Shown here: positions 10,396 to 55,437 of the stretch, one piece after another
Position numbering within the stretch: position 1 is the stretch's first letter
Layout of the letters: each line of letters begins with the position of its first letter
Source of the DNA: a virus
Direction: 5' to 3' (one strand)
DNA length: 64,000 bases
Virus record (IMG/VR): IMGVR_UViG_3300039208_000195
Location: 351-64,350 of that record
The notes under the pieces: model-generated
Databases searched by the model: none
Told to the model about the DNA's origin: nothing
Seen by the model: the letters and a program-made list of their open reading frames with translations, nothing else
Made by a program: the position numbers and the translations under genes

Positions 10396-11361
10396 ATGAG
10401 CGAAGTATTAGCGCTTAAGTATAGACCTCAGGCTTTTGATGAGGTCATTGGACAGGACGAGACAGTTAATCAGCTGTCAAGTGCATTAGACAATCAGTCC
10501 CTTGGACATGCACTTATCTTTGCGGGCACCCGCGGTTGTGGTAAGACCACTTCCGCTCGTATCGTAGCAAGGGTTCTCAACCCAGATTTATCCGACGCTG
10601 AAATGTCAATGGTGGTCACTGAGGTGGACGCCGCTTCCAACACCGGTGTGGATAGCGTCAGGGAGCTTATTGAGAACATTAGGTACTCGACCAAGGGCCA
10701 CAAGGTTATTATCCTGGACGAGGCTCACATGCTTTCTAAGAACGCGTTCAACGCGCTCTTGAAGACTCTAGAGGAGCCGCCGCCCAATACAACCTTTATC
10801 CTATCCACTACTGAGCCTCATAAGCTGATCCCGACCGTTAGGTCGCGCTGCCAGCTCTATGAGTTCAAGGATGTGGACGTAGACGTTCTCGCGGCGTACT
10901 ACAAGGAAGTAGCGGTCAAGGAAAGTCTCGACATTGACGGTGAAGCACTACATGACGTGGCGATTCGCGCAGAGGGCAGTGTCCGGGACGGACTTACTAT
11001 TCTCCAGAAGTATCTTTCTGGGGAGTCGGTAGAGAGCAACGCTTCGATCTATTTTGATCTAGTCAGCGCTCTGTACCAGGCAGACGTCGCTACAGCACTG
11101 GCTCTCGTAGCCGATCTTCGACAGAAGGAAGATGGTCGAGTTATCATCCAAACTCTGGAGAAGTGGTTCTACTGGTGCTCGCTTGAGAACTTTGGAATGA
11201 AGACTCCTGCACGTCAGCATTTCCCCGGAGACGCTCCGGTGTTTGACCTGACGCACTTGCAGAATCTTTTCAACACTTGTCTAGAGGTAGAGCGAAACTT
11301 CGCTGCTACTCCGAACAGCAAGTCCGTTCTTGAGATGGGAATCATTAGACTATGCCTGTAA
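10396..11361 (+). CDS. dnaX: DNA polymerase III clamp-loader gamma/tau-like subunit
   Basis: LALKYRPQ-F-EVIGQ, Walker A GTRGCGKTT, EVDAASNTGVD, ILDEAHMLS, NALLKTLEEPP, SRC; the zinc module is absent. Confidence 0.92.
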   Translation: MSEVLALKYRPQAFDEVIGQDETVNQLSSALDNQSLGHALIFAGTRGCGKTTSARIVARVLNPDLSDAEMSMVVTEVDAASNTGVDSVRELIENIRYSTKGHKVIILDEAHMLSKNAFNALLKTLEEPPPNTTFILSTTEPHKLIPTVRSRCQLYEFKDVDVDVLAAYYKEVAVKESLDIDGEALHDVAIRAEGSVRDGLTILQKYLSGESVESNASIYFDLVSALYQADVATALALVADLRQKEDGRVIIQTLEKWFYWCSLENFGMKTPARQHFPGDAPVFDLTHLQNLFNTCLEVERNFAATPNSKSVLEMGIIRLCL

Positions 11362-12086
11362 AAGGATTCTACTTCGTCTACGGTGACGACGCAGATATGA
11401 TTGAGAAGAAGTACCTCCCCGATCTGGAAAAGCAGTACGGGGACGCTACGTGGCTTCGCTATGATGCCACTATCGATGATATCCGAATCGGACACCTGAC
11501 TACTGAGTATAACGCCAACGATCTGTTCGCAGAGTCCAAGGTGATCCTTATCAGGAATGCGGACGCTAAGTTTGCCCAGGTTGAGGAATTGGCAACTTCT
11601 CTTTTAGAGAATCCGATTCCTGCCAATGCTCTGGTACTTATCTCTAAGTCCTGGAACAAAACAACCAAGCTGGGCAAGCTTGTTAAGAAGAGCTTCACAG
11701 TCAAGGAGTTGAGCAAGCCAGAAATCAAGCCATTTGAACTCCTGGACTCTCTGAACTTTAAGAAGGCATCTAGGGTTATCCAGCAGAGCAATCTGCTGTT
11801 TGAGAACGAATATAACCCACTGGCTTTGTTTTCCCTTATCTCTGGACACATCCTATTGCTGAAGAAGATTAAGCAGCACCAGGGTAAGTCTGCGGAGGTA
11901 ATTGCGAGGGAAATCAAGCAGCACGTGTACCGTGTTAAAAAGACTATGCCTGCTTTACGCGAATGGTCAGAGGAAGATATTGCCAATGCTCTTAAGGAAA
12001 TGCAGGAGTTAGACCGGAGGATCCGGACTTGGCAGTATGATGAGAAAATGTTAATTCAAATGAGCTTGATAAAACTGTGTACATGA
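11352..12086 (+). CDS. holA: DNA polymerase III delta-like subunit
   Basis: YFVYGDD N terminus, DLFAESKVILIRNAD, C-terminal helical collar; adjacent to dnaX. Confidence 0.75.
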   Translation: MPVKGFYFVYGDDADMIEKKYLPDLEKQYGDATWLRYDATIDDIRIGHLTTEYNANDLFAESKVILIRNADAKFAQVEELATSLLENPIPANALVLISKSWNKTTKLGKLVKKSFTVKELSKPEIKPFELLDSLNFKKASRVIQQSNLLFENEYNPLALFSLISGHILLLKKIKQHQGKSAEVIAREIKQHVYRVKKTMPALREWSEEDIANALKEMQELDRRIRTWQYDEKMLIQMSLIKLCT

Positions 12087-12094
12087 GGTATAAT
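12066..12094 (+). promoter_or_regulatory. sigma70-type promoter, possibly giving a leaderless mRNA
   Basis: TTGATA-17 nt-TATAAT ending 4 nt before ATG 12099. Confidence 0.55.
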
Positions 12095-12098
12095 TGCA

Positions 12099-12410
12099 AT
12101 GAACGATATTACTAAGGCACGTTTCTTTTTCCAATCGAAGGGATCTAATCTGAAGGACCTGACTTCTTTTCGACTAATGCTGGCTACAGCCAATGCTAAG
12201 TACCGGGACGTCAGACTCCGAATGAAGAGCGGGATGCCAGGAGACAATGAAGCGCTGGACCCAATCGAGATTGATGCCCTGGTTGATCTAGGAGTTCTAA
12301 AGTACATGGAGAAGTTTAACCGACTTCCTGAAGACGCAGGTCGAGTACTGGAGCAGGGGATCTCCCTAGAGGAAAAGCGCGAGATCGCTATGCGGTGGGC
12401 TCGCTCTTAA
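12099..12410 (+). CDS. hypothetical protein
   Basis: ORF downstream of promoter. Confidence 0.7.
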   Translation: MNDITKARFFFQSKGSNLKDLTSFRLMLATANAKYRDVRLRMKSGMPGDNEALDPIEIDALVDLGVLKYMEKFNRLPEDAGRVLEQGISLEEKREIAMRWARS

Positions 12411-12689
12411 ATGGAACTGTCTCTCCTCAAAGAGCTAGCTAAGCGTAGCATCGAGTGGAGAGATGAAGACAAGGTCTCTTTCTTGTGGGGAGACCTGATA
12501 GTTTTGGCTTACGTTAGGAGTGACTACAAAGTGTGGTACCCCCTGACCGATGTACCCATAGAACACACGTTGGAAATCAACAAGTGGTTGGGTAGTTACC
12601 TACAAACCTTAGAGGTTGAACAAGAAGATGAGCGAGCATTACAATCGCAATTGGCTGACAAAAAGAGAAATCGAACGCCGGCCAGGTGA
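12411..12689 (+). CDS. hypothetical protein
   Basis: Starts directly after the previous stop. Confidence 0.6.
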   Translation: MELSLLKELAKRSIEWRDEDKVSFLWGDLIVLAYVRSDYKVWYPLTDVPIEHTLEINKWLGSYLQTLEVEQEDERALQSQLADKKRNRTPAR

Positions 12690-13062
12690 ACTTTATTTAA
12701 CGCGTTACGTTATCTTCAGATGTAAGTGGTTCGGAATGTACGTCCACAAATTCTGGGTTAGCGATTACGATGTTCCTCACGACCATCCTTGGAATTTTCT
12801 TTCACTCCCACTCACTACGGGATACCGAGAGCATCTTCCAGATGGTACCAGTGTCTGGAGAGGGGCTTTTAGTCCTAAGTTTAGAACAGCAGAAGAATTC
12901 CATTGGGTAGACTTGGAGAAGGGACCGGCTTGGACTTTCTTCATGCACTTTAGGAAGAGACGAGAATGGGGATTCCTGACTAAGGAAGGTTGGGTTGACA
13001 ACGAGACCTACAACAGAATGCTAGGATTTGACATCACTAGCGCTGCAGGAGAAGAGTGTTGA
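12616..13062 (+). CDS. cupin-fold protein (phage type)
   Basis: YLTRY...YVHKF...PHDHPW...GYRE...FHWV; likely start ATG 12628. Confidence 0.65.
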   Translation: MNKKMSEHYNRNWLTKREIERRPGELYLTRYVIFRCKWFGMYVHKFWVSDYDVPHDHPWNFLSLPLTTGYREHLPDGTSVWRGAFSPKFRTAEEFHWVDLEKGPAWTFFMHFRKRREWGFLTKEGWVDNETYNRMLGFDITSAAGEEC

Positions 13063-13667
13063 AAAGAATTGGTATTGATTGTGATGGCGTAGTCGCGGAC
13101 TACATGGCAGGGGCTGTTCCTGCTCTTAAAAAACATTATGGGTTAGAGCCCAACTTCAACACCGAGGCATATACGATTGAAGAAGTCTTTGGTCTAACCG
13201 TAGACACAAGACCCAAGAACATGAGACAAACTCTCTATCTGGAGAATAACCTCTTCGCGAAGTTACCTCCGCTAGAACAAGACATCAGTAGTCTGACCAC
13301 TCAGCTAGTACATGCTTTGGGGCCAGACTTCAAGGTCTATTTTGTTACTGCCCGGGATAATCATCCGATTATTATGGATGATACCCGTCAGTGGCTGAAG
13401 CGCAACATCATTCATTTCGACGATGTATTTCACGTACAGAACAAAGCTGAGTTTTGCCAATTGGCTGGGATTCAGGTTATGATTGAGGACGAGGTTCGTC
13501 AAATCGTTGGGCTTCAAGAAGCAGGAGTTGATGTAATTATGCGGGACCAACCGTGGAATCAACACTTACCTGCAGATCCTCATGGTTTAGAGGACAACAA
13601 AGGGCGACTCACTCGTGTCCATAGCTGGCGCGATTATGTGGAGGTCGCCAAGGAGTATTACGCATGA
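13056..13667 (+). CDS. HAD-family 5'(3')-deoxyribonucleotidase-like
   Basis: IGIDCDGVVAD (DxD), YFVTAR, K, MIEDE. Confidence 0.8.
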   Translation: MLKRIGIDCDGVVADYMAGAVPALKKHYGLEPNFNTEAYTIEEVFGLTVDTRPKNMRQTLYLENNLFAKLPPLEQDISSLTTQLVHALGPDFKVYFVTARDNHPIIMDDTRQWLKRNIIHFDDVFHVQNKAEFCQLAGIQVMIEDEVRQIVGLQEAGVDVIMRDQPWNQHLPADPHGLEDNKGRLTRVHSWRDYVEVAKEYYA

Positions 13668-14200
13668 AGTTTTATCTGTCTGGGGGGATGGAGTATAAGA
13701 AGAATCTCGGTGCCAATTGGCGCGAGTGGATCACAGAGGAACTTGAGAAGCATCGACACGACGCAATCAACCCTGTGAAGTTGGAAATCGCAGAAGAAGA
13801 GACTGACGAAAACGCTCCACCCATTCAAGTTCAACTTACCAATCTTAAGCTTGAAGGTAAGATGGACGAAGTCCGACGTCTGGTCCGGAAGGTACTGTTC
13901 CGCAAGGACATGTATGCTATCCAGGAATCAGATGCAATTATCGTACTATACGATGAGTCCACGCGAAGAGGCGCGGGCACTCTTTCCGAGGCGTGGGAAG
14001 CCTTCCGTGAAGGTCGACCTGTTTATCTGGTCACCGAATTCGACATGGAAGAGGTACCAACGTGGTTGATCGGAGAAACTACTAAGATCTTCGACGACTT
14101 TGAAGACCTACTGGAATATGTAGCGGACCACAGTCATGTTATCCGCGACAAGATGAATGCAGGTCAGATCGCACACGACGTGCTCGGAGGACTCTACTAG
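13664..14200 (+). CDS. nucleoside 2-deoxyribosyltransferase / dNMP N-glycosidase-like
   Basis: FYLSGGM, D-x-x-AI-x-x-SDAII, GTLSEAWEA (catalytic Glu position). Confidence 0.75.
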   Translation: MKFYLSGGMEYKKNLGANWREWITEELEKHRHDAINPVKLEIAEEETDENAPPIQVQLTNLKLEGKMDEVRRLVRKVLFRKDMYAIQESDAIIVLYDESTRRGAGTLSEAWEAFREGRPVYLVTEFDMEEVPTWLIGETTKIFDDFEDLLEYVADHSHVIRDKMNAGQIAHDVLGGLY

Positions 14201-14210
14201 GAGGTAGCCT

Positions 14211-14663
14211 TTGGAGGACTTTGCCCTCTTAGGCAATGCCGCTGCAGTCCCGATCATCATGGGCGCAACTCAGCTCTTGAAGAAGAATCTCTCCTTCAAG
14301 TACAAGGCTGATGTTGTGTCTTTTGTCGTTGCATTAATCATTTGCCCCCTTTGGTGGTTCTACAACACACCGGAGGCGGAAATCCATGATGCTCTCGATG
14401 ACGGAATTGTACCTACAATTAAGTTTATCATGCAGTTGGTGTTGATCTCAATAGCGACATGGCTATCTGCTACCAAATCCTACGATCTTTTTGCCGGTAA
14501 CAAAAAGCGCGAGACGCAACATGATGCCGAGAAAGAAGAACTCCATGAGAAGATTGCCGCTTTGCAGTCCACTCTGGATAACGGAGGGAAGTTAGATGAA
14601 GAGCCTACTGAGGAGACTGACGTCAGCGATAAGCTCCTTGATATCTTGGAAGGGAGAGACTGA
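14211..14663 (+). CDS. multi-pass membrane protein (holin-like) with acidic tail
   Basis: TTG start after a GGAGG RBS; three hydrophobic segments. Confidence 0.6.
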   Translation: MEDFALLGNAAAVPIIMGATQLLKKNLSFKYKADVVSFVVALIICPLWWFYNTPEAEIHDALDDGIVPTIKFIMQLVLISIATWLSATKSYDLFAGNKKRETQHDAEKEELHEKIAALQSTLDNGGKLDEEPTEETDVSDKLLDILEGRD

Positions 14664-14664
14664 T

Positions 14665-15132
14665 ATGCCAGGTGTTGCCGACGCAGAGCGTCGTACCAGA
14701 AATGCACAGAAGCAGCAGGGCCGTAAGAAGGACCGAGAAGAGTTGATGCGTCTCCTCAAGGAGGGAAGACTCCACGAGGCAGACGAGCATCAGGTAGAGC
14801 AGATTAAACTGGCTCTAGAGCTTAAGGAGCTTCTGGATGCAGGGACTAAGGAAGCAGCTCCTGCAGCAATCGATACTGAGGCTCTCCAGGCTGCGATGAG
14901 AGGAGCTGTTGCTGAGGTTATCCAGGCGATGCCCCGGGGCTCGGGCCCGACCGGTTCTAGCATCTCTGATCCCGCTCGTCCTAAGATGAAGCACACCAGC
15001 CTCACCTCCATTAAGCACGAGGACTCTGGACTAGATGTTCAGGGGGCCGACAAGCTTGCGGAGGAGAAGGAGGGTGACGAGAACGCAGCGGATAAGCTGA
15101 AGCGACTGAGAGAGCTTAAAGGCTCCAAGTAA
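14665..15132 (+). CDS. charged helical protein upstream of the actin-like gene
   Basis: ATG 14665 after the previous stop; ends ADKLKRLRELKGSK; coupled to the next gene. Confidence 0.7.
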   Translation: MPGVADAERRTRNAQKQQGRKKDREELMRLLKEGRLHEADEHQVEQIKLALELKELLDAGTKEAAPAAIDTEALQAAMRGAVAEVIQAMPRGSGPTGSSISDPARPKMKHTSLTSIKHEDSGLDVQGADKLAEEKEGDENAADKLKRLRELKGSK

Positions 15133-16472
15133 TGTCCGATAAGAAGATTAAGGAATTAGAAAAGAAGGGAGTTGTCAAAACCGGAGATGATGGTATCCGG
15201 GTAGTTGACGCTTCCAAGTTAGACGCTATGAGTCTTCGTCCTCAGGAAGAGAAGGAAGACAAGCGTAAAGCTGTAGGTAAAAAGCAGCGCAAGAAAAAGA
15301 AGAATAGAAATAGGAATCGACCTAAGCCCCCTCCTCCCGAGCCGGAGGTAGAGGAAGCTGTCGAGGAAGTTCCGGAGGTTAAGAAGCCAGTCTTCCAACC
15401 CCCGGCAGATATTCAGAAGAGAGAAATTCTCAAAGAGAAGGAGTTTACTATGGCTGACGAAGATGTCCCGAAGGGAGTAGGACTCGACGTTGGAACCTCG
15501 TTCCTAGTTGCTGGTCGTTTTGGCAATGACGGAAAGATTGGTTTCAAGAAGATGCGGGACTGCTTTATTGAATTGGAGCCAAAGACCCCAATCAATGCAA
15601 AGTTTATCAAGAAGGGTATCGAAGATCGCGGTGCCCCGTACATTGAGAAGGACGGTAGCTTCTACGTCCTAGGAGAGGAAGCCTTCATCATGGCGAACGA
15701 GCGGCACATCACCACTCGACGACCGATGCACCGTGGTGTTCTTGCACCGCAGGAGAGCGAGGCATTCCCCATCCTTCAGGAGCTAGTGAAGAGACTGGTC
15801 GGAGACCCCCGAGAGCAGGGTGAGAAGTTGGTCTTCTCTGTACCAGCTAAGCCGATCGACGCAGAGTTTGATCAGCTTTTCCACCAGGACATGATTAAAT
15901 CCTTTATTGACGGTCTGGGTTATGATGCCCAGCCAATGAACGAAGCCGAGGCCCTTGCGTACTCTGAGCTTCTAGAAGAGGGTCTTACCGGCGTCGCAGT
16001 GTCCTGCGGTGCGGGTATGATGAACGTAGCAGTACTTTCTGCTGGTGACCCCGTGGTTACCTTCAGTACCTCCCGCTCGGGAGACTGGGTTGATTCCCAG
16101 GCAGCTACTGCTACCAACATGACCCCCAGCATTGTGCAGCAGGAGAAGGAGGATCCGGATCTAGATCTGATGAATCCCGACCCCAGCAATCCTGTACAGG
16201 CTGCTATTTCCATCTACTACGGTAACCTTCTGGTTTACACCCTGGAGAACATTGCACACGACCTTGCAGCTTCTCCTGCCCTTCCTAAGTTCAAGGAGGG
16301 TGTTCCTTTGGTAGTAGCAGGGGGTACTTCTCTACCGCGCGGATTCATTCAGAAGTTCGAGCAGGCCCTACAGGCAGTAGAGATGCCTATTCAGATTTCG
16401 GAGGTACGACACGCAGCTGATCCACTTCATGCTGTAAGTAACGGTCTAACTCTCGCAGCATCCATGGAGTAA
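15132..16472 (+). CDS. actin-superfamily ATPase (volactin/MamK-like), with Lys/Pro-rich N-terminal extension
   Basis: Phosphate-1 GLDVGTS, connect-1 MNEAEALAYSEL, phosphate-2 SCGAGMMNV, adenosine VVAGGTSLP, connect-2 HAVSNG. Confidence 0.85.
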   Translation: MSDKKIKELEKKGVVKTGDDGIRVVDASKLDAMSLRPQEEKEDKRKAVGKKQRKKKKNRNRNRPKPPPPEPEVEEAVEEVPEVKKPVFQPPADIQKREILKEKEFTMADEDVPKGVGLDVGTSFLVAGRFGNDGKIGFKKMRDCFIELEPKTPINAKFIKKGIEDRGAPYIEKDGSFYVLGEEAFIMANERHITTRRPMHRGVLAPQESEAFPILQELVKRLVGDPREQGEKLVFSVPAKPIDAEFDQLFHQDMIKSFIDGLGYDAQPMNEAEALAYSELLEEGLTGVAVSCGAGMMNVAVLSAGDPVVTFSTSRSGDWVDSQAATATNMTPSIVQQEKEDPDLDLMNPDPSNPVQAAISIYYGNLLVYTLENIAHDLAASPALPKFKEGVPLVVAGGTSLPRGFIQKFEQALQAVEMPIQISEVRHAADPLHAVSNGLTLAASME

Positions 16473-16475
16473 AGC

Positions 16476-17636
16476 TTGGCAGACAATACCCCGATCCTTG
16501 GACTTAAAAAGCCTGTTCCGAACGTGGAGGTCAACTGGGCCTTCCGGCTAAACGAGTCCCTGGACATTCTCGACCAGAGTCTTCTGGTTGGTAATGCTTC
16601 TTCTACTGCAAACGTTACTACGTACAACAGTGGGACGGGGTTGCTGCTAATTAGTGGTAGTACAAATCCTATCTTTGAGCACGTAGAGGCCATTACCTAC
16701 AACAGTGATTTTGTCACAGTAGGAAGTGGTACCTTCTACGATGTGGACAGTACCTATGTCACGGCCACTTCTGGATCTTTTGATGAGGTAGTGGTCAATG
16801 GAGTTGAGCTTAGTTTAGCCAGTCCTGTAGACAACAGCTTTAAGCGTCTATTCCACGTGGCGGATAGAAAGCCCAACGACACTGACGGCGGTACTTTCTC
16901 TAGCGGGGCTTGGAGAGTTCGTACCCTTAATTCCGTAGAGAATGACTCTATGGAGGGGGACGCATCGTTAAGCTCCAATACCATCACCCTGATTCCAGGA
17001 ACCTACTTTATTGAGTGGCGTTGTCCTGCGTATAGGGTACTCAGACACCAGTCTATCCTATACAACCTGACCGGCGGATATACGCAAATTCAGGGAACTT
17101 CTGAATACAGCCACAACAGCTACAATACCCAGACCGTAAGTTTCGGTACGGGTGTTTTCACTGTAACGGAAACCACCGACTTCCAGATCTGGCACCGATG
17201 TGAGACTTCGTCTACGACTTTCGGTTTTGGTGTAGGTGCTAACTTCGGGATTGATGAAATCTACACCGAGGTTAAGATTTGGCCATACGCGGCCTACGTT
17301 ACTGCTTTAGATACTCTGGTAGCCACGAGCGGTACCTTCAGCCAAGGACTCACCTTATCGGGGGTCCCTGTCTCTACAGGAACCCATACCGTAATTCCTG
17401 ACCACCTGACAACCTTATCGGGTACTTTCGTAGACGAGCTTACTGTTTCGGGGGTTCCTGTCACTACAGGGATTGCAGATCCTCTCACAGTGCAATCCGG
17501 AACTTTCACACAAGGCCTGACCGTTCCTGTAACTTCCGGAACCGACAATCAGGTCTGGATCGACCCCACCACAAGCGGGCTGCGCTGGCAGTTCAACGGT
17601 GTGGTTTTCGAGGCGACGGGCGTTGAGGTAGCGTAA
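16476..17636 (+). CDS. fibre-like virion protein
   Basis: T-x-SG-T repeats and a GGTFSSGAWRVRTLN...ITLIPGTYFIEW beta domain. Confidence 0.65.
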   Translation: MADNTPILGLKKPVPNVEVNWAFRLNESLDILDQSLLVGNASSTANVTTYNSGTGLLLISGSTNPIFEHVEAITYNSDFVTVGSGTFYDVDSTYVTATSGSFDEVVVNGVELSLASPVDNSFKRLFHVADRKPNDTDGGTFSSGAWRVRTLNSVENDSMEGDASLSSNTITLIPGTYFIEWRCPAYRVLRHQSILYNLTGGYTQIQGTSEYSHNSYNTQTVSFGTGVFTVTETTDFQIWHRCETSSTTFGFGVGANFGIDEIYTEVKIWPYAAYVTALDTLVATSGTFSQGLTLSGVPVSTGTHTVIPDHLTTLSGTFVDELTVSGVPVTTGIADPLTVQSGTFTQGLTVPVTSGTDNQVWIDPTTSGLRWQFNGVVFEATGVEVA

Positions 17637-18466
17637 TGGCTACACTCAGTGTTTACAACGAGGGTAAATATAACGACGGTATCTACAACCTGTCCGCATC
17701 CGGGACAGGGTTCTTTTCCGTCACCATGAACGGGCAGACTCAGTACTTTGCGAAGTCTGATATGCCGCAAGCACTAGGTCTTTACGACGAATGGACTATC
17801 GCCTTTTGGATTAAGTTCCAGCAAACTCCAGAAGCTAGGACCATCTTCAGCACCAGTGGACCTGCAGGTGAGAATCTTATTCAACTCACGATGGATCCTA
17901 TTTCTCAGACCATCGATAATACTTTCACAGAACCTCGCTTTTCTAGCATAGCTACCTTGCTTAAAGGGCCTGACGGAAGTATAATTAAGCACGTAAAGTG
18001 GGGACCATTTGCTAGAGAAGACGAATGGACTCACGGAGCGATTACCTACAGCGGTGGTGATCTGACAGTATACGCTTCAGGGATCTCGGTCCCCTCCGGA
18101 ACAAGCTTTGTAAACGTTTCGGGAACAAGCATGACAGACGACCCTCCGCGAGCTATCTATTACGGGACTGATCCTGCTGGTAACGTAGCAACGATCAGTG
18201 GTAACATTGGACATCTCGGAACCTGGAGCACAGCTTTGAGCCAGGAAGAGGTTGCCGCAATCGCAGATTTAGGATTCCCCCTGGATCTGACAACTACTTC
18301 CGGAGGTTATGCCTCCAACGCTTCTCTGAGAATGTACTATCGTCCTGGAGAAGATGAGACGGATTTCGGTAGAGATTATAGCGGAAACAACCAAGACCTA
18401 GACAAGATCCGAGATACGGATCTAGACGACCTTGATTTTGACGTACCAGACCAAGGGGGCCTGTAA
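17636..18466 (+). CDS. LamG-domain virion protein
   Basis: WTIAFWIK, EWTHGAITY, GNIGHLGTWSTAL; paralogue of 2790. Confidence 0.8.
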   Translation: MATLSVYNEGKYNDGIYNLSASGTGFFSVTMNGQTQYFAKSDMPQALGLYDEWTIAFWIKFQQTPEARTIFSTSGPAGENLIQLTMDPISQTIDNTFTEPRFSSIATLLKGPDGSIIKHVKWGPFAREDEWTHGAITYSGGDLTVYASGISVPSGTSFVNVSGTSMTDDPPRAIYYGTDPAGNVATISGNIGHLGTWSTALSQEEVAAIADLGFPLDLTTTSGGYASNASLRMYYRPGEDETDFGRDYSGNNQDLDKIRDTDLDDLDFDVPDQGGL

Positions 18467-18828
18467 TGGAAGAACCCATTGTCGATGAACGACCCTGGGG
18501 CAAGTTTGTTCAGTTTTGTCTAAACGAGAAAGCAACAGTTAAGATTATTCAGGTAGAGCCCGGACAACAGCTGTCCGTGCAGAAGCACCAGAACCGAGAT
18601 GAGATGTGGATCGCTTTAGATCCGGGCCTTGTGGCCCTGATCGGAGATGATACGATTTTCATGAAAGACATCGAGATTGCTGAAGAGCCTGTCTGGATTC
18701 CCAGAGACACAGTGCACTCGATCAAAAATGCAAATGTAGGGCTTACCGCCCGCTTCCTGGAGATTTCCTTTGGAGAATTTGATGAGGATGATATCGAACG
18801 TCTCCAGGATCAATATGGGAGAGTATAA
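18466..18828 (+). CDS. mannose-6-phosphate isomerase type II C-terminal cupin
   Basis: ERPWG, LSVQKHQNRDEMW, HSIKN, EISFGEFDEDDIERL-D-YGR. Confidence 0.85.
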   Translation: MEEPIVDERPWGKFVQFCLNEKATVKIIQVEPGQQLSVQKHQNRDEMWIALDPGLVALIGDDTIFMKDIEIAEEPVWIPRDTVHSIKNANVGLTARFLEISFGEFDEDDIERLQDQYGRV

Positions 18829-19019
18829 TGTCTGAGCACAAGATGCCTGTCCACGCTGACAAGAAAGACCGCGAGCGCTTCGCCAAGCAGTGGCGAGATG
18901 ATCGCGACCACAAAGAGAAGCTGAAGAATGAGCGCTTCGCGGCGATCCAGGAACGCCGTAAGAATAACAAGCCTGGTGGTAGCGGGGGCGGAATTAACAT
19001 TGAAGTTTCTGGCGATTGA
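18828..19019 (+). CDS. small basic protein
   Basis: Coupled ORF. Confidence 0.55.
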   Translation: MSEHKMPVHADKKDRERFAKQWRDDRDHKEKLKNERFAAIQERRKNNKPGGSGGGINIEVSGD

Positions 19020-19071
19020 TCGTATTATTTAACTGGTGGCAGCAAGCGCTTCCATCAGACTAGGAGTAGTA

Positions 19072-20109
19072 ATGGATTTTGGATTAACCTTTGACGACGT
19101 GTGTCTCGTCCCGCAGTTTAACAACGTACCGAGCCGGACAGAGCCGGACACACATACTTGGATGACGAAGGATCTCGAAGTAGGGATGCCTCTTATTCCT
19201 GCCAACATGGACACCGTTATGGGAGTTGATTTGGCAAGAGTGATTATTGCAAATGGTGGATACCCGATCTTCCACAGATTCGCTTCTGTGGTAGACCAGA
19301 TTAAGTGGGTTGAGGAGCTGGAAGGTCGGCTTTTCGTTTCTTGCGGGATCAACGAGAATAGCGATATTCTCAATATCCTAGATTCGAAGCCCACGGGTGT
19401 CTGCATTGATGTGGCCCATGGACACTCTGAGAAAATGTTCGATATGATCAAGAGGCTCAAGGACCACAACCCCAACATCCAGGTGGTTGCAGGTAACGTC
19501 TGTACTCCCATGGCTTACCAGGATCTGGTAAATGCAGGGGCGGACGCTGTAAAGGTAGGTATTGGCCCAGGCGCAGCTTGCACCACACGTGTCGTCACTG
19601 GCTTTGGCGTTCCCCAGTTCACCGCTATTCAGCAGTGTGCTGAGATTGCCAACAAGTTGAGGGTCCCCATCATTGCCGACGGTGGTATTCGTAACAGTAG
19701 AGATGTCGTTCTGGCCCTCGCAGCAGGTGCTTCTACGGTAATGATGGGTAAGATGTTTGCTTTGACGGAAGAGAGCGCAGCTGAAAAGCAGCGAACCATT
19801 ATTGGTGCTGACGTAGTAGACCACAGTCCTAAGTACGGTGAGCTACGCGCCAAGTACCGAGGTCAGGCAAGCGCAGATTTCCAGAATGAATTCTACGGCG
19901 GGCTCAAGTCTAAGACTGTTGCCGAAGGAACCGACTTCTGGGCACCCGTTACTGGTACTGCTCAGGATCTTATTGACGAGATTCTGGGAGGTCTCCGGAG
20001 CGGGCTGACATACGGAGGAGCCCGAAACATTAAGGAGCTTCAGCGCAAAGCAGAGTTCATGCAGGTCTCTGCAAGCTATAGCGCGGAGAGTAATCCACGG
20101 AGGAAGTAA
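19072..20109 (+). CDS. IMP dehydrogenase / GMP reductase family, no CBS domain
   Basis: [35 protein letters not shown] (catalytic Cys), IADGGI, YRGQAS; ATG 19072 has an AGGAG RBS. Confidence 0.9.
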
Positions 20110-20885
20110 TGTCTGTACGAATCGCACGTGACTGCAGAGAACGAGAGGAAGAGGTACGTCCTTATATTGAAGAGCACGCTTCTACTTTCGAACTCGACCC
20201 AAATCTGGTACGAGCCCTGATCACTCAGGAGTCTCGGTTTAAGGCAGAGGCAGTAAGCCCCACGGGAGCTTATGGTCTAGGTCAGTTTACTGGGATTGGT
20301 GCACGTCAGGTGCAGAACATTGCAGATATGCCAGATTGCCCCAGCCCTGAGGGGCTAGAAACCTTTACCAAGCAGGACGCGTCTGATCCTGATATCGGCA
20401 TTAAAGCGATCTGTGCTACCTTATGGTGGCTCTTCAACAAGAAGTACACCTCTGTTAAGGTTCCCGATAAGAAGGTTCAGTTAGAGGCTGTCCTTACCTT
20501 TTACAATTCTGGGGGACGACCGGCGGCCCTAGTGGTTAAGCACGGGGGACACGAGAAGGCCCTTCCTTACATTGAGAAGATGCCTGACCGATACAAGTCC
20601 CAGTCTGAGAAATATGCCCCAGAAGTAGCTCTGTGGTATGTTGCTTGGCATGAGCTTCTAAAGCCCCAGACTACCCCAATTAGAACTGAACTTCCTGAGC
20701 AGAAGGATCCCTTCGATAGAGCAGGTCGTCAGTCTTTGGATGTCCGTTACCGAGCATTGGTAGAGTCCCTACGATTGCTGGGTGAGGGAGATGATGACGT
20801 TGATGTAATGATTGATGTCAGAGAAGGACTTACTGAGGTTACCCTCATTGTTCCTGGAGAATTTCTGAATAATGTCCGTCGTTAA
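20109..20885 (+). CDS. SLT-type lytic transglycosylase
   Basis: LVRALITQESRF (catalytic Glu), AVSPTGAYGLGQF, TFYNSG. Confidence 0.85.
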   Translation: MSVRIARDCREREEEVRPYIEEHASTFELDPNLVRALITQESRFKAEAVSPTGAYGLGQFTGIGARQVQNIADMPDCPSPEGLETFTKQDASDPDIGIKAICATLWWLFNKKYTSVKVPDKKVQLEAVLTFYNSGGRPAALVVKHGGHEKALPYIEKMPDRYKSQSEKYAPEVALWYVAWHELLKPQTTPIRTELPEQKDPFDRAGRQSLDVRYRALVESLRLLGEGDDDVDVMIDVREGLTEVTLIVPGEFLNNVRR

Positions 20886-21633
20886 AACCCCAGAAGAAGT
20901 AGAGAAGATGCGGGAATCTGCCCGCCTCCTCTCGGAGTGTTTGGATGCGCTCGTTTCCCACGCGTATCCTGGGGTCACAGGAAAAGAGTTAGATCGCTTG
21001 GCAGAAAGTTTCATTAGAGATAATGGGGCTATTCCTGCTTTCAAGGGATACACTACTGTTCCTGGACTCCCTGGTTTTCCTGCGAGTATCTGCTACTCTA
21101 AGAACCATGTCCTTGTCCACGGTATTCCGGATGACGAGCCCCTCGAAGAGGGGGATATGCTCTCCATCGACTGTGGACTGAGCCTGGACGGTTGGTTTGC
21201 GGATTTTGCTAGACTCTTCATTGTAGGTGAGGGGTCAGAGGAAGATCAAAAGATTGTAGATGCGACCCGAGCAGCATTAGATGCCGGGATCGACAAGTGC
21301 CGTGTTGGCAATAAGCTTGGCGACGTTAGCCATGCTATTCAAGCTTCTGTCCATAATAGTGGATATGAAAACGTGCTGCAGTTCTGTGGTCATGCCATAG
21401 GACGACAAATGCACGAGTCTCCCCAGGTCCCTAACTTCGGACCTTCAGGTGTAGGAATAGACCTGGAGGTTGGAATGGTTTTCTGCCTTGAGCCTATGCT
21501 CCTGAAGCATAAAGTCGGGTTAGGGGTATTACCTGATAAGTGGACCATTATCACCGCGGATCATTCCCGTGCTACTCATATTGAGCACATGGTGCATGTT
21601 TCTGAGGAAGGTCCCGAAATTTTATCCCTTTAA
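20872..21633 (+). CDS. map: methionine aminopeptidase type I
   Basis: VHGIP, SIDCG, FADFA, GHAIG, HESP, LEPM, HIEH metal ligands. Confidence 0.95.
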   Translation: MSVVKTPEEVEKMRESARLLSECLDALVSHAYPGVTGKELDRLAESFIRDNGAIPAFKGYTTVPGLPGFPASICYSKNHVLVHGIPDDEPLEEGDMLSIDCGLSLDGWFADFARLFIVGEGSEEDQKIVDATRAALDAGIDKCRVGNKLGDVSHAIQASVHNSGYENVLQFCGHAIGRQMHESPQVPNFGPSGVGIDLEVGMVFCLEPMLLKHKVGLGVLPDKWTIITADHSRATHIEHMVHVSEEGPEILSL

Positions 21634-34123: not shown

Positions 34124-35950
34124 ATGGGACAGCCAGTAATTCTAGTTAATCAAACAGCAGGCGCGATCGCGCTGGACGATCTAGCCATTACGGTACCTGC
34201 CGGGGTAGGAGTAACTTTTGATACTACCGATCTCCTGCAGCCTGAAGAAGTCAGAGCTTCTACTGATTTACAGGTCAGAGTTAATGCAGGAGACATCATT
34301 ATCAATGATGGTACTACGGATTTAGATCAGAGTGAGAGTCAGGGTTTTATGGATGGTGGCGGTATTGGTGCCGTTGTCCCCAACTCTCAGGCAGAAGTCT
34401 CTGTTCAGCAGACGGTAATTAACGAGGGAGATACAATTCTCTCTTTGACCGATGCCATTGTCTCTACCCAGCCCGACCTTATCGTAGTTTCAGGAACCAA
34501 CGAGGTACAGCTATCCTTACTCGCACCTCCGGATGTTTCCTCGGCGGTTCAGACCAGAAATACCGCCGGTATTACCAATGTTCCTCTCACGTGGACCGAC
34601 ATTACTATGGACACCACGGACGTGGAAACAAACGATACAGTCATCGAACACGACGATGTTGATCGAGACAGAATTCAAATTAAGGCCGACGGCCTTTACC
34701 AACTAACCTATGCTGGAGATATTGATGATGAAGGTCAGATTAGGGTTAGAGTAAACGATGCCACTGTTCTTCCTGGCTCTACCAGGGTGTACGGTAATCC
34801 TGCGGACGCTGTAGATCTACAAGGGCCGTTAGTGAATGTATTCTACGCCCAACTTTCTGCAGGGGATTTTGTTACTCCTCAGATCCAGGCCCTTTCTACT
34901 AATGAGAACTTGAGCTCAGACTTCATTTTCTGTGTTGGTAGATTTGACGGAGCAGAAGGTCCCCAAGGACCGACAGGCCCAGCAGGTTCTCAAGGCAAGA
35001 ACATGTTCTTTGCTACGGCGGGTTCGGATACTTCTATTAGTAATACCTTTACCGCCGTAAATCTAGGAACTCAAGTTGTAGCGTCCGGCTTCACTCATAC
35101 TCCAGGTACCTCTGACGTCACTGTAGACGCCACGGGTATCTATGAAATTGAGTACTACATTAACTCAGACAACAATGCGTCTAATACCCGATCTGAAAGT
35201 GAGGCCCGATTAGAGCTGAATACTGGTAGTGGTTTTGTTGTGATTCCAGATACCCAGTCAGCTATGTATCATCGCAACACCGCCCAGAACAGGAATTCTG
35301 GATCGGCCTCCACAATTACCCTACTATCTGCAGGGGACGTAGTAAGATTAGTTGCAAGAATGGAATCTGGCTCTTCGGTGGGCAGAGCCTTAGGTTTTGG
35401 AACAGGCCTAAAGATTATTGACGCAGAGTCCTCCGGGGCGCAAGGAGAGACCGGACCGCAGGGACCAATTGGTCCCCAAGGACCACAAGGACAGCCTGGT
35501 AATCCGGAACCTGCTCTTATTGGAAACTTCCCAATTACTGTAGCTTCTGGAGTTGATACTATCACTCTTAGCAGCGTAGGTCTGGGGGGTACGGAGTTTG
35601 CCGCCTCTGAAGGGGACAGTTCTACTTCTAGTAATACCCCCGTAAATAAGGTAACTTTAACTACCTCTAGCTTACCTGCCGGTACTTATAGAATTGGTTG
35701 GTATTATGAGTGGTCGCATTCCTCAACTGCCTCAGACTTCCGAGCTCGGGTGTTTGTGGATGGCACAACTACTCTTATGGAACAATCCCAGGAACCCCAG
35801 GATGCGAGAACAGATCAAAGAATTCCCGCTGGGGGACATGGTTATCTAGCGCTAGGTTCAGGCGTGCATACAGTTGCCTTGGATTTCTGGGCAGAGGGCG
35901 GCACTGCTACCATTAGGCGCGCAAGATTAGAAATTTGGAGAACAGCATAA
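34124..35950 (+). CDS. collagen-repeat fibre protein
   Basis: GAEGPQGPTGPAGSQG and GAQGETGPQGPIGPQGPQGQPG (G-x-y) stretches separating beta domains. Confidence 0.8.
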   Translation: MGQPVILVNQTAGAIALDDLAITVPAGVGVTFDTTDLLQPEEVRASTDLQVRVNAGDIIINDGTTDLDQSESQGFMDGGGIGAVVPNSQAEVSVQQTVINEGDTILSLTDAIVSTQPDLIVVSGTNEVQLSLLAPPDVSSAVQTRNTAGITNVPLTWTDITMDTTDVETNDTVIEHDDVDRDRIQIKADGLYQLTYAGDIDDEGQIRVRVNDATVLPGSTRVYGNPADAVDLQGPLVNVFYAQLSAGDFVTPQIQALSTNENLSSDFIFCVGRFDGAEGPQGPTGPAGSQGKNMFFATAGSDTSISNTFTAVNLGTQVVASGFTHTPGTSDVTVDATGIYEIEYYINSDNNASNTRSESEARLELNTGSGFVVIPDTQSAMYHRNTAQNRNSGSASTITLLSAGDVVRLVARMESGSSVGRALGFGTGLKIIDAESSGAQGETGPQGPIGPQGPQGQPGNPEPALIGNFPITVASGVDTITLSSVGLGGTEFAASEGDSSTSSNTPVNKVTLTTSSLPAGTYRIGWYYEWSHSSTASDFRARVFVDGTTTLMEQSQEPQDARTDQRIPAGGHGYLALGSGVHTVALDFWAEGGTATIRRARLEIWRTA

Positions 35951-38911: not shown

Positions 38912-40075
38912 ATGTCTGTATCTTACTGGCAGGACACTGTCGGACTGACTTTAGATTTAGACGCGGATGTTACAATCATCGGCGGTGGATTGGCTGGTCT
39001 ATCAACAGCCTACTGGTTAAGTAAGAAGGATCCCAATCTCTCCATCATCGTGGTGGAGAAGGGACAATTAGGACATGGTGTCTCTGGTAGAAACGCAGGG
39101 TTCATTACATGCGGTTCCACCGAGCACTTCTCTCGTATGACAGCCGCATACGGGGAAGGCAAGGCAGAAGAGATTTGGAAGTTTACTGAATACAATCACA
39201 ACCTGATGAGGGAAGAGTTCGGGGTTGAAAAACTCGAAGAGCTTTGTGAGTATCGTAATCTGGGAAGCTGGACACTGGCAGCCACAGAGCACGAGATTGA
39301 GGTAACCAAGGCTACCGTAGCCGCGTTACAGGAAAAGGGAGTTAACGTCGAGTGGAAAGACGAAGCCTACCCGGGAACCGAAGGTTTCCACGGTGGTGCT
39401 TTCTACGCAGATGATGGTGAGATTCACCCAGCCAAATATCTATGGCATCTCGGTCTTAGGACAGGAGACGCTGTAAGCATTATGGAGAATGCAGAAGTTT
39501 TCGGGATTGATGAGGAGGAAGGCAGTCTAGTTGTTAGGACCAATAAGAAGAGAATTAAGACAGAAGCTATCGTGGTTTGCACGAACGCTTGGTCCGGACA
39601 GCTGTTCCCCTGGTTCCAGGACAAGATCGCACCTACGCGTGGCCAGATCATCGTTACTGAACCGGTTGACCACTTTCTACAGCCATCCTACTGCAGCTTC
39701 GTACTTGACTACTTTCGGCAGCTTGTCGATGGCCGGGTTCTCATTGGTGGTTTCAGAAACGCCGATGTGGAAAGGGAGGTTGGATTCTCAGATGAAGTCA
39801 ATCCTATCATTCACGAGAAGTTGGAAGGTTTTCTTAACGACCACTTTCCCGCTCTCCGCGGGAAGCGAATCGATTATCGCTGGTCTGGGGTTATGGGCTT
39901 TGCTGCTGATGGATACCCATTGGTAGGATCGCTCCCGGAAGACCCCAGGATTTTCTACAACGTAGGATTTACAGCACACGGATTGGGTTTCACGTTTGCT
40001 ACAGGAGAGTTAACAGCAGACCTGATACTCGCGGGACAGGACCCTGGAATTTTCTCAGGGAGGAGGTTTCAGTAA
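38912..40075 (+). CDS. FAD-dependent oxidoreductase (DAO/PuuB-like)
   Basis: IIGGGLAGLSTA, GVSGRNAG, WSGVMGFAADGYP, GFTAHGLG. Confidence 0.9.
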   Translation: MSVSYWQDTVGLTLDLDADVTIIGGGLAGLSTAYWLSKKDPNLSIIVVEKGQLGHGVSGRNAGFITCGSTEHFSRMTAAYGEGKAEEIWKFTEYNHNLMREEFGVEKLEELCEYRNLGSWTLAATEHEIEVTKATVAALQEKGVNVEWKDEAYPGTEGFHGGAFYADDGEIHPAKYLWHLGLRTGDAVSIMENAEVFGIDEEEGSLVVRTNKKRIKTEAIVVCTNAWSGQLFPWFQDKIAPTRGQIIVTEPVDHFLQPSYCSFVLDYFRQLVDGRVLIGGFRNADVEREVGFSDEVNPIIHEKLEGFLNDHFPALRGKRIDYRWSGVMGFAADGYPLVGSLPEDPRIFYNVGFTAHGLGFTFATGELTADLILAGQDPGIFSGRRFQ

Positions 40076-53028: not shown

Positions 53029-55437
53029 ATGGCTGATAAGAATAGCGTAGAAGAGGGTAACACCCCTCTGGACTTCCTCAAGGAACTGAGGGAGTTCGCG
53101 ATTGATTTGAACGAAGATTGTCCTGAAGGACATCGAAAGGACCCCGCAAGTGGGAGATGTCTACCGATGGGTAGTATCGACCACACCGCTGAGAGCCGGA
53201 GCGTCAATGTTGACCACGGCCCAGAGTGGCGCGGTGAGAAGGATAAGACGGAGACTACTACCGTAGTTCCGCGATCCGAGGTCGCGATCGATGCATCTGA
53301 GATGGACGAACCGGAGTCGTGCGCAGCTGGCACGACTTTTTCTTTTATCCAGCGACGCTGCGTAACGTTTGAGGAGGCTGAGGCCGAGACAAACGACGAG
53401 TTCGCTATGACTGAAGACAACGAATACATCGAGGAAGAGGCCGCAGCTCCGGGTGTCGGCGGTCACCAGGAGATCGTTAACATCGATCCTTCCGGACGCC
53501 GAGACACCATCAATTTCCGCTGCCCGCCTAACCAGATGTTCGACTTCAAGCGGAGAGAGTGCATTCCGCTGAACAAGGACACTGTTATGGCTGCAGAGGC
53601 TTCTGAGCTGACTGAAGAGGAGAGGAGTGAGCTTGCTCGTTACCTGCACGGTAAGGTTGCAATGACTTCCCCAGATCCTATTGACGGCCACACTCACCTC
53701 GCCACTCTAGACGCTGAGGGTAACGGTAAGACCTCCCTCTGCGGTTATGGTGATGAGGCTCATTCCCATGATGTATCTGACTATGTTGTCCAGGACCACA
53801 AGGGTAAGGAGTATACTTCCCGACACTTTGGTCACGCAGTACCCCAGGAGGTTTACGAGTACGGCGAGGACGATGTAGCAGTAGAGGCTGTAGCAGAGGA
53901 GGCTGAGGTCGAGACCGCAGCACCGATTACCTCTAAGCAGCGAAATGCTCTACCTGATAGCGCGTTTGGTGTTCCTGGAAAGAGAAAGTTCCCACTAGAT
54001 ACATGTGCACGTGTAAGAAACGCAATGGCTCGATTTAACCAGGCAAAGGATCTTACTTCTGGGGAGAAGGCTTCCCTTCGAAGAAAGATTCTCGCCCGCG
54101 CCAATGCTTGTGATATCGAAGTAACCAATTTTGCAAAGGCTGAGACTGCAGATGAATTTGCCGCAGTCGTTCGTGAAATGATTCAGCCCATCCGAGAGGA
54201 GGCATCCGCAGCGCGCATGGCTTCCTACGAGAGTGAGCAGGCCTCAGGGGGAAACCAGGGTCCTTGCCCACCAGGAATGGAGTGGAGTGCTGAGTCTAAG
54301 CGATGTTCCAAGATGCGCGGATTCTATGACGCTATCAAGGACGAGGCCAACCATGCCGACATTGTAAAGAACCAGCCTGCTGGACGACGTGATACTGTTA
54401 ACCACGACTGTCCTCCGGGCCAGGTATTTGACTTTGGTAATCGCACCTGCATTCCTATGGATACGAATGCTCACCCGGGTCGCCCGGGAGCAACCGCTTC
54501 TGACGAGGATGCAGCACAGCGTGATCTCGCACCGTCCCCAGAGGGACAGCCTGTTCGACTTCCAGTTGACTGCCCTGCGGGCACCATCTGGAGCCGACGT
54601 CGAAAGGAGTGCATTCCTCTAGACAGCAGCAAGAAGACCAAGTCTGCTGAAGAAGAGGCCGCCCTGCCTGAGTTCATGAAGAAGATCATGGAAAAGAAGA
54701 AGAAGGGCAAGGACGGAGATAAGAAGAAGGAAGAGAAGAGCGAAGAAGTAGACGAAGCACAGACTACCCCGAATGGTAACGGTGGCAAGTCGGGTCCAGG
54801 TTGTCCTGAGGGACAGTTCATGAACCCAGTTACCAAGAAGTGCATGCCCCGAAAGGGAGCCTTCAAGGGTAAGTCGGAGACCGAGGAAGCTGATGCCAAG
54901 CCGGGAAACAGAGAAGGACTAACTCCCGCGCCGGCAGGAAAGGTTCAGCACCAGAGCGATTGTCCCCCGGACACCGCTTGGGATGCTAAGAGCAAGACCT
55001 GCCGACCGCTAAGTGAGATGGACAAGAGTCGCCCCAGCGGTAGCAGCCCTCAGAATCCGAAGAGCGTAGCATCTGTAGAGGATGTTGTAGAGAACATGTC
55101 TCTAGCTAAGATCATCGCCGCCCTTGATGAGATCATTGCAGCAGAACTTGCAGAAGGACGAACCGAGAAGGCAGGAATGAAGGTGGCCGCGAAGGATCTT
55201 CCTAACGAAGCGTTCCCACCCTCTCTTGTTAGCACTACTCGCCGAAGCCTGATGCATCACAGCCCAGACGTAACCGATCCTTACGATACCGCGTCCGTGG
55301 ACACTGCGCGACTGCGCAATGCCCTGGCCCGGTCATCTAAGATCGATGGCTTCGCTGAAAAGGCCGTCGCCGACGCACAGGAGCATCTCCTGTGGCACGC
55401 GCGCCAGCTCGTATCGGCTCACCTGGGAAAAGCGTAA
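53029..55437 (+). CDS. head-module protein with eight C-x12-C repeats, HxH cluster and two RNA(M/L)AR domains
   Basis: CPEGHRKDPASGRC-type repeats x8; GHTH/HSH/HFGH; LPDSAFG...RVRNAMARFNQ and LPNEAF...RLRNALAR. Confidence 0.85.
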   Translation: MADKNSVEEGNTPLDFLKELREFAIDLNEDCPEGHRKDPASGRCLPMGSIDHTAESRSVNVDHGPEWRGEKDKTETTTVVPRSEVAIDASEMDEPESCAAGTTFSFIQRRCVTFEEAEAETNDEFAMTEDNEYIEEEAAAPGVGGHQEIVNIDPSGRRDTINFRCPPNQMFDFKRRECIPLNKDTVMAAEASELTEEERSELARYLHGKVAMTSPDPIDGHTHLATLDAEGNGKTSLCGYGDEAHSHDVSDYVVQDHKGKEYTSRHFGHAVPQEVYEYGEDDVAVEAVAEEAEVETAAPITSKQRNALPDSAFGVPGKRKFPLDTCARVRNAMARFNQAKDLTSGEKASLRRKILARANACDIEVTNFAKAETADEFAAVVREMIQPIREEASAARMASYESEQASGGNQGPCPPGMEWSAESKRCSKMRGFYDAIKDEANHADIVKNQPAGRRDTVNHDCPPGQVFDFGNRTCIPMDTNAHPGRPGATASDEDAAQRDLAPSPEGQPVRLPVDCPAGTIWSRRRKECIPLDSSKKTKSAEEEAALPEFMKKIMEKKKKGKDGDKKKEEKSEEVDEAQTTPNGNGGKSGPGCPEGQFMNPVTKKCMPRKGAFKGKSETEEADAKPGNREGLTPAPAGKVQHQSDCPPDTAWDAKSKTCRPLSEMDKSRPSGSSPQNPKSVASVEDVVENMSLAKIIAALDEIIAAELAEGRTEKAGMKVAAKDLPNEAFPPSLVSTTRRSLMHHSPDVTDPYDTASVDTARLRNALARSSKIDGFAEKAVADAQEHLLWHARQLVSAHLGKA

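Follow-up and report, generated by a model that had tools for sequence, protein, structure and literature searches.

A volactin-family actin gene with a conserved second start and two candidate partner genes in a large tailed phage

Cytoskeletons that phages build for themselves have so far been known from the tubulin PhuZ and from one prophage actin, AlpC. PhuZ provides nucleus-forming jumbo phages with a polymer of their own (PMC8314001), and AlpC of the Corynebacterium prophage CGP3 is reported to be an actin-like protein working via an adaptor, AlpA, that binds DNA sites termed alpS (PMC4446434, PMC5539076). Volactin (VolA, HVO_2015) of Haloferax volcanii forms dynamic filaments that cross the cytoplasm, with their tips in contact with the membrane (PMC10869688). 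Both phage-encoded cytoskeletal filaments and the volactin family are therefore already known. Here, we describe a volactin-family actin gene, together with the two small genes directly upstream of it, in 64,000 nucleotides (nt) of the IMG/VR virus record IMGVR_UViG_3300039208_000195 (hereafter the window, meaning the whole stretch of DNA that was analysed). We consider that these genes probably encode a phage system of membrane-linked actin filaments, with two actin isoforms and two small partners, a reading that draws on the observed family membership, predicted fold, conserved starts, conserved gene trio and resemblance between protein tails. The co-oriented trio at 14211–16472 had been picked out by a first-pass annotation made from the letters alone, and each of its features was found where it had been placed:

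14211–14663, + strand: open reading frame (ORF) of a protein with three predicted transmembrane segments (150 amino acids (aa); TTG start 6 nt after AGGAGG)
14665–15132, + strand: ORF of a candidate soluble adaptor (155 aa; ATG after GGGAG, one base past the preceding stop)
15130–15134, + strand: TAATG stop/start overlap, linking the start of the long actin isoform to translation of the upstream gene
15132–16472, + strand: ORF of the long isoform, an N-terminal extension plus a volactin-family actin core (446 aa)
15132–15224, + strand: N-terminal head, aa 1–31 (helix 3–12, beta-hairpin 15–17/23–25)
15225–15404, + strand: disordered Lys/Arg/Pro/Glu-rich tether, aa 32–91 (predicted local distance difference test score, pLDDT, 38–59)
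15438–15443, + strand: internal Shine–Dalgarno (SD) sequence AAGGAG (codons K103 AAG and E104 GAG)
15450–16472, + strand: short isoform, the actin core alone, from Met107 (340 aa, starting MADEDVPKGVGLDVGT)
16002–16025, + strand: divergent phosphate-2 loop S-C-G-A-G-M-M-N (aligned to MamK VDIGAGTTD)

The actin gene matched the Pfam Volactin family (PF25216) over aa 116–443 with 221.5 bits (E = 2.6e-65; profile positions 3–321 of 321; curated cut-off 35 bits), and the match was confirmed on genome coordinates. Pfam MreB_Mbl (PF06723) gave a partial match of 30 bits to aa 173–323 alone, the NCBIfam models for MreB (NF010539) and MamK scored 21.6 and 19 bits against cut-offs of 293 and 400, and no ParM-type match was among the Pfam matches to the gene. 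These sub-threshold MreB and MamK scores were all that NCBIfam returned, and the gene had no PHROGs family and no meaningful PADLOC match. A single-sequence phmmer search against PDB found no match at E ≤ 1; a profile search placed MamK first (E = 2.8e-5) and MreB near 1e-3. An AlphaFold2 model of the 446-aa protein, built from 72 sequences, reached a mean pLDDT of 85, with the core above 90. Structural comparison by VIA-align ranked the MamK filament highest (PDB 5ljv; Z 28.2, root-mean-square deviation 2.9, 294 residues aligned at 22% identity), followed by BeeR (Z 26.6) and by MreB and eukaryotic actin at about 25 (aa 112–446); with Z values of 25–28, the modelled core shows the two RNase-H-like halves and four subdomains of the actin fold. 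Foldseek gave TM-scores of 0.69–0.73 for MreB and MamK, with the first Hsp70 entry at rank 30 (TM-score 0.44), and the viral structure library BFVD held no close model (best TM-scores 0.55–0.59 at 12–13% identity). By sequence and predicted structure, the gene at 15132–16472 is a phage-borne volactin-family actin whose predicted fold lies nearest MamK and MreB, not Hsp70. The earlier placement with volactin and MamK rather than with MreB or ParM thus held, and the model was not closer to Hsp70 or to sugar kinases. MamK is both the closest solved structure and the best PDB profile match; it differs from the window protein in its canonical DIGAGTTD loop, in the score on its own NCBIfam model and in its magnetosome context, which is absent here.

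Of the five actin motifs claimed in the first-pass annotation, four are canonical, and the fifth, phosphate-2, lacks its Asp and Thr: it reads S-C-G-A-G-M-M-N where MamK and MreB have D-x-G-x-G-T-T-D. Residues S291, G293, A294, G295, M296 and N298 are invariant across 72 relatives, and the S.G[AG]GM.N loop also occurs in bacterial and haloarchaeal members, so the divergence is a trait of the whole family and not a defect of the window gene. The same loop, in place of D.G.GTTD, could also point to a non-polymerising ATPase with an actin fold, acting like a chaperone, a kinase or FtsA/PilM, and one ESM Atlas cluster is indeed auto-named 'putative Competence protein A'. We regard this as quite improbable: the best structural matches (MamK, BeeR, MreB and actin) are filament formers, with Hsp70 much lower, the founding member of the family polymerises in vivo (PMC10869688), and haloarchaeal homologues scoring 437–466 bits on the Volactin model carry the same phosphate-2 loop.

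A second in-frame start had been proposed where the extension gives way to the core, formed by AAGGAG at 15438–15443, a 6-nt spacer and the ATG at 15450. It is present, and is backed by conservation at the nucleotide level. In all 49 loci with DNA in which the actin carries an N-terminal extension (long-form loci), AAGGAG-6 nt-ATG is kept, with the ATG ten codons before the GLDVGT motif, a frequency far beyond chance. For a codon alignment of 41 non-identical genes, a column was called conserved when one amino acid occurred in at least 90% of the sequences. This gave 189 columns, and the sole two written with one codon throughout were K103 (AAG, 39 of 39) and E104 (GAG, 39 of 39), the codons that spell the internal SD sequence. 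Elsewhere in the same genes, AAG makes up 61% of Lys codons and GAG 48% of Glu codons, and shared ancestry is controlled for internally by the remaining 187 conserved columns. All 41 genes have an ATG for Met107. Among long-form protein clusters, 103 of 105 have a Met at −10 and Lys-Glu at −14/−13, and one more has them shifted by one residue. As supporting evidence only, we note that mRNA folding over a 900-nt span puts the internal start in a 42-nt window that is one of the two with the least structure (mean folding free energy, dG, −3.3 versus −6.5 overall).

The position of this start has a counterpart outside the window's clade. Phage relatives that consist of the core alone (core-only; ∼47% identical) are ∼333 aa long and start 3–6 residues before GLDVGT, and an extension of 80–125 aa is confined to the clade of the window (60–83% identical); the 340-aa short isoform therefore corresponds to the actin that most phage relatives have as a stand-alone protein. 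The long-isoform start has just a weak AAAGG SD sequence ∼10 nt upstream, and its TAATG overlap with the preceding gene is common to most long-form loci; the sequences suggest that the short form is the more efficiently initiated of the two. The extension itself is, on codon evidence, translated and under protein-level selection, because its conserved residues L9, G13, G21, R23, D26, A27 and L30 are each encoded by 2–6 different codons. Taken together with the internal SD sequence and ATG, which are fixed at the nucleotide level, this means that two products, of 446 and 340 aa, are almost certainly to be expected from the one gene.

Intragenic SD-like sequences have been proposed to slow ribosomes, although this is disputed, and AAGGAG could on that account be a pause or folding signal within a gene that makes the long form alone; conversely, the short form alone might be made, the upstream frame being a leader. 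That one cluster, P0060, manages without the internal Met fits a single product. Yet a pause signal leaves unaccounted for both the invariant in-frame ATG 6 nt downstream in 49 of 49 loci and the match of the second start with the start of core-only relatives, and a frame that was no more than a leader would not be expected to stay open, to conserve residues through 2–6 codons or to encode a confidently folded head. A single product would accordingly come as a considerable surprise. In-frame internal initiation that gives two co-assembling isoforms is known from phage T7 gene 4A/4B and from CheA-L/S; there, as here, a second start with its own SD sequence yields a short form minus an N-terminal module. 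To our knowledge, such an isoform pair is undescribed for any actin-family protein. A core-only sub-lineage (L017:4235–5311, L021 and L023) has a 22–24-aa N-terminal extension (MGFK...) with an internal AAGGAG or GAGGAG 6–7 nt ahead of the usual ATG, so that a second start may have arisen, or been kept, more than once.

The 106-aa extension contains 22 Lys, 8 Arg, 11 Pro and 22 Asp plus Glu, with a net charge of +8, and consists of three parts: a 30-aa head, a Pro-rich variable tether and a segment leading into the internal start. The head has the consensus ELxxxGVVxTxxxGIRVIDASKL, often followed by GPxRLR, and a conserved LLPxDxxKRExLNxxFKKEFxM segment runs up to the internal start. In the full model, the head forms a helix and a beta-hairpin (pLDDT 83–90) and residues 33–90 are disordered. 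When the extension was folded alone, the head retained a pLDDT of 84–89, and it is therefore, in these models, a self-contained mini-domain independent of the core. Against solved structures it had no significant match (best E 1.9, to wing-like fragments), and hhalign of the extension against the partner proteins returned nothing (E 0.07–0.4). Across the clade, the linker measures 21–50 aa and the net charge of the whole extension ranges from −4 to +9. We had considered the basic tail as a conserved nucleic-acid binder and dropped this candidate, as neither the charge nor the linker length is conserved; the suggestion in the first-pass annotation that the tail binds nucleic acid loses its basis in the same way, since the basic run of the window is not conserved and what is conserved is the 30-aa head.

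The two genes upstream of the actin gene are kept with it. In ∼40 long-form loci, the gene for the three-transmembrane protein, the gene for the 155-aa protein and the actin gene retain their order and spacing (−915, −540 and 0 nt), with identities of 32–70%, 34–66% and 60–83%, respectively, and wherever a long-form locus has enough flank, a homologue of the 155-aa protein lies ∼540 nt ahead of the actin gene. The membrane protein has three hydrophobic segments, predicted to span the membrane, followed by a charged or coiled tail that is predicted to be cytoplasmic and ends DKLLDILEGRD. Its homologues start at the same ME[DE] as the TTG-initiated ORF at 14211–14663, and it has no Pfam family, including no Pfam holin. 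The 155-aa protein, for which a longer ORF listing from 14596 overlaps the preceding gene, is soluble and mostly of low complexity, with a basic N-terminus (MPGVADAERRTRNAQKQQGRKK), a conserved EGRLHEADE.Q.E helix, an RPKMKHTSL motif and the C-terminal tail DKLKRLRELKGSK; it has no family in Pfam, PHROGs, NCBIfam or PADLOC.

Core-only loci have an upstream partner of their own. In 72 of 75 of them an ORF ends just ahead of the actin gene, and ∼49 of the 52 distinct upstream sequences belong to one family of ∼100 aa (for example in L010, L014, L020, L025, L026, L033, L040, L057, L058, L071 and L078, plus ∼40 more loci). With an N-terminal transmembrane helix, an I.IDD.KFVT motif and a C-terminal tail of the form DDI.SA..KLAQLKK.KG, these are predicted single-pass membrane proteins, without a Pfam family match. 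The pair of partner and actin persists amid differing neighbours, which may be dUTPase-like, AAA+, IMPDH-like or epimerase-like. The tails of the partners resemble each other: the 155-aa protein ends DENAADKLKRLRELKGSK, and hhalign aligns its C-terminus with that of the core-only partner (P = 0.0024); the three-transmembrane protein ends DVSDKLLDILEGRD (family consensus [DA][KR]L..IL[EG]). Both upstream proteins of the window thus end in an amphipathic DKL..L tail similar to the KL..LK tail of the core-only partner. In core-only loci with a spacer between the two genes, the ending KL..LKK.K is still present in the partner, and for this reason the tail helix looks like a feature of the protein.

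A membrane protein also precedes the actin gene in three haloarchaeal loci (L145:1971–4026, L146:1791–4179 and L147:1917–4020, on Natrinema, Halogeometricum and Haloarcula megaplasmids). It has four transmembrane segments and belongs to DUF7139; VD..V.GLKGLKGG is found in its acidic tail, which terminates with an L..RSL motif and aligns weakly with the phage partner tail (P = 0.017). The DUF7139 protein could be the membrane anchor of volactin filament tips. Comparison by hhalign of the three-transmembrane protein with the core-only partner and with DUF7139 proteins gave nothing (E 0.07–0.4). The volactins themselves are alike in their full-length PF25216 match, the S.G[AG]GM.N loop and, in the haloarchaeal homologues, an upstream membrane protein; they differ in that the window protein is 38–41% identical to haloarchaeal members, falls in a separate phage clade, belongs to a bacterial-type tailed phage, has an extension with a second start and has partners without detectable homology to DUF7139. 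In MreB-RodZ (PDB 2wus), too, a bacterial actin is bound by a membrane protein, and MreB was among the top structural matches; the window actin, however, fails full-length MreB models, and its partner is predicted to use a C-terminal tail, whereas RodZ binds via an N-terminal helix-turn-helix. On a Parcubacteria-binned contig (L137:3197–7078), a volactin-family gene with a basic 30-aa N-terminal extension lies downstream of a gene for a 167-aa protein, which has a winged-helix-like start by eye, no Pfam family and the ending KTLRTLKKLKK, and upstream of a pair of GvpL/GvpF gas-vesicle genes, of which one is a fusion with DnaJ.

We propose that the 340-aa core polymerises and would form the bulk of an ATP-dependent filament, and that the 446-aa form co-assembles in smaller amounts, presenting its head on a flexible tether and so linking the filament to something else. 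Both upstream proteins would dock on the actin through their C-terminal tails, which we infer from the resemblance of these tails to that of the core-only membrane partner; the three-transmembrane protein would tie filaments to the cell membrane and the 155-aa soluble protein would be a second adaptor. Such a scheme resembles the published volactin filaments, which cross the cytoplasm with membrane contact only at their tips (PMC10869688). Polymerisation, the relative amounts of the isoforms, docking and a role in organising the infected cell are the inferred parts of this scheme. The first-pass annotation had likewise suggested that the upstream proteins anchor filaments to the membrane. This role is made plausible by the membrane partners with which core-only phage actins and haloarchaeal volactins are likewise coupled. 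The filaments might organise replication sites, capsids or the host envelope; the positioning of DNA or capsids is a role that the first-pass annotation had put forward.

Several observations weigh against a membrane-linked two-isoform filament. The similarity of the tails is statistically weak (hhalign P 0.0024 and 0.017) and concerns short motifs. The terminal [EK]-G codons (GAAGG, AAAGG) double as the SD sequence of the next gene, so part of the resemblance may reflect a nucleotide constraint. One of the 105 long-form clusters, P0060, is without the internal Met. ATP hydrolysis may differ, because phosphate-2 is without the Asp and Thr of other actins; haloarchaeal volactin homologues have the same loop. 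In the clade of the window, synteny extends to the flanking nucleotide-metabolism and replication genes, and linkage alone is therefore not specific there. Finally, the three-transmembrane protein has a weak PHROG holin match (phrog_1299, E 0.004).

These last two points, together with a class-I-holin-like shape (three transmembrane segments and a charged tail) and an SLT transglycosylase gene at 20109–20885, raise the possibility that the three-transmembrane protein is a holin, or some membrane protein with no connection to the actin, adjacent to it only through the collinearity of the clade. We hold this to be unlikely. The gene is not beside a lysin, the transglycosylase gene lying 5.4 kb downstream; the tail of its product resembles those of the adjacent candidate adaptor and of the core-only membrane partner; and two other lineages, in which the membrane domains are unrelated, also pair a membrane protein with the actin.

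DNA could be the cargo instead. In a ParMRS- or AlpAC-like system for DNA partition or transport, the 155-aa protein would use its basic N-terminus to bind phage DNA, which it would pass on to the filament. Besides that basic N-terminus, the prophage AlpC/AlpA pair offers a reported precedent (PMC4446434, PMC5539076), an Acidobacteriota cluster fuses HU to the volactin core, and the upstream partner on the Parcubacteria-binned contig, with its KTLRTLKKLKK ending, begins like a winged helix (by eye; no Pfam family). The locus itself offers no iterated centromere-like repeats beyond chance-size pairs in 12000–17000 and no intergenic space, and no DNA-binding family was detected in the adjacent proteins with Pfam or NCBIfam. 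In the much larger core-only clade, moreover, the partner is a membrane protein, not a DNA binder. We give this explanation little weight. Compared by description, the system of the window shares with AlpC/AlpA a phage-encoded actin that would work via an adaptor; it differs in that the DNA sites that AlpA is reported to bind have no repeats to match them here, and the best-conserved type of partner is a membrane protein. With PhuZ, the likeness is that of a large phage with its own cytoskeletal polymer and lies in the possible role only, PhuZ having a tubulin fold and the window protein an actin fold; neither chimallin nor PhuZ turned up in the window, in which no search was aimed at either.

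An exhaustive HMMER search of 1.84 billion representatives gave 987 clusters at E ≤ 1e-3, with 309 still present at E ≤ 1e-30. Many clusters have N-terminal additions of 50–575 aa, or two actin stretches per protein; representatives of ∼700 aa with two actin stretches are numerous, and P0121, P0128 and P0136 are among the unusual representatives listed. In one Acidobacteriota ESM Atlas cluster, an HU-type DNA-binding domain (PF00216) is fused to the volactin core. At least 334 IMG/VR contigs encode relatives, and most of these viral relatives are core-only; GenBank phages contributed just two unannotated huge phages at 33–34% identity. Species-representative genomes yielded bacterial copies from Terriglobia, Binatia and Deltaproteobacteria (33–36% identity, on contigs or chromosomes of 0.1–4.5 Mb), and all three whole bacterial genomes searched that carry a volactin-family gene also encode a true MreB (∼490 bits). 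Copies on haloarchaeal megaplasmids, which stood as proxies for H. volcanii VolA (HVO_2015), are 38–41% identical to the window protein and are the homologues that score 437–466 bits.

A quick maximum-likelihood tree, with three MreBs as comparison and the root within the family not fixed, separated the family from MreB with a support of 100. Within it stood a long-form phage clade that includes the window (99), a core-only phage clade (100) and a cellular group (100) of bacteria, haloarchaea, one contig binned to the candidate phyla radiation and one huge phage; L009, a core-only member 53% identical to the window protein, fell outside the core-only clade. As judged from its place in a separate, phage-only clade, the window protein is a member of the family and not an orthologue of the archaeal shape protein, and the disk-shape-forming role of volactin cannot be carried over to it. 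A contig in a 'Candidatus Altiarchaeales' metagenome-assembled genome (L134; WJJK01000141.1, 30 kb) carries a long-form gene that is 75% identical to that of the window and shares its internal start; a phage contig has probably been binned with an archaeal genome by mistake. Nitrososphaera is likewise the label of a partial copy (P0104).

The source of the window is a large tailed phage of a bacterium, because the window encodes a tail sheath, a large terminase, a major-head-like protein, a bacterial-type clamp loader and a holA-like gene, with all sizeable ORFs on the + strand. It covers 64,000 of the 71,456 bases of the record, for which CheckV gives a completeness of 24%, implying a genome of roughly 300 kb; contigs bearing close relatives measure 296–298 kb. 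Promoter- and terminator-like sites in 11000–19500 did not stand out clearly from shuffled sequences, and none was inside the gene trio. Elsewhere, the window contains a set of auxiliary-metabolism-like genes (19036–20109, 20872–21633, 38912–40075, 18466–18828 and 13056–14200), with products that include an IMPDH/GMP reductase (E 1.6e-89), an M24 metallopeptidase (E 1.7e-48), an FAD-dependent DAO oxidoreductase (E 1.5e-64), a mannose-6-phosphate-isomerase-type cupin, an NT5C 5′-nucleotidase and a weak nucleoside deoxyribosyltransferase-like protein. Two domain-rich proteins are encoded at 34124–35950 and 53029–55437: a likely fibre, which combines collagen repeats with a BclA C-terminal-like domain, and a Cys-rich protein in the head module with chitin-binding peritrophin-A (CBM_14) repeats and DUF6582.

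We found no paper on phage volactins, and volactin is not tied to a virus in the literature examined. The founding paper mentions neither virus nor phage (PMC10869688), phage actins are absent from a comparative study of 2021 and from a review of 2026 on jumbo phages, and AlpC was the only phage actin found in further searches. Automatic annotation already names some Uroviricota clusters 'Volactin domain-containing protein'. What is new here is the evidence that the second start is under selection at the nucleotide level, the division of the extension into its parts, the single-pass membrane partner of the core-only majority and the pairing of haloarchaeal volactins with DUF7139.

A broader picture is a tentative one, and on balance we lean somewhat against it. 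Hundreds of uncultured tailed phages would possess an undescribed volactin-family actin cytoskeleton, tethered to the membrane by small partners that dock via a short C-terminal KL..LK helix, perhaps shared with the haloarchaeal volactin/DUF7139 pair; in one clade of jumbo phages, internal initiation would turn the filament into a two-isoform co-polymer with the long isoform as its built-in adaptor subunit. Volactins, whose study has so far been limited to a cell-shape filament of a haloarchaeon, now appear in at least 334 viral contigs, adding to the short list of phage-built cytoskeletons. The conserved internal start would be a new way to regulate a bacterial-type actin, with one gene giving a plain and a tethered subunit. 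The recurring membrane partner is a candidate for the factors that anchor the tips of volactin filaments, and, together with the actin, it may form a small, portable filament-plus-anchor pair.

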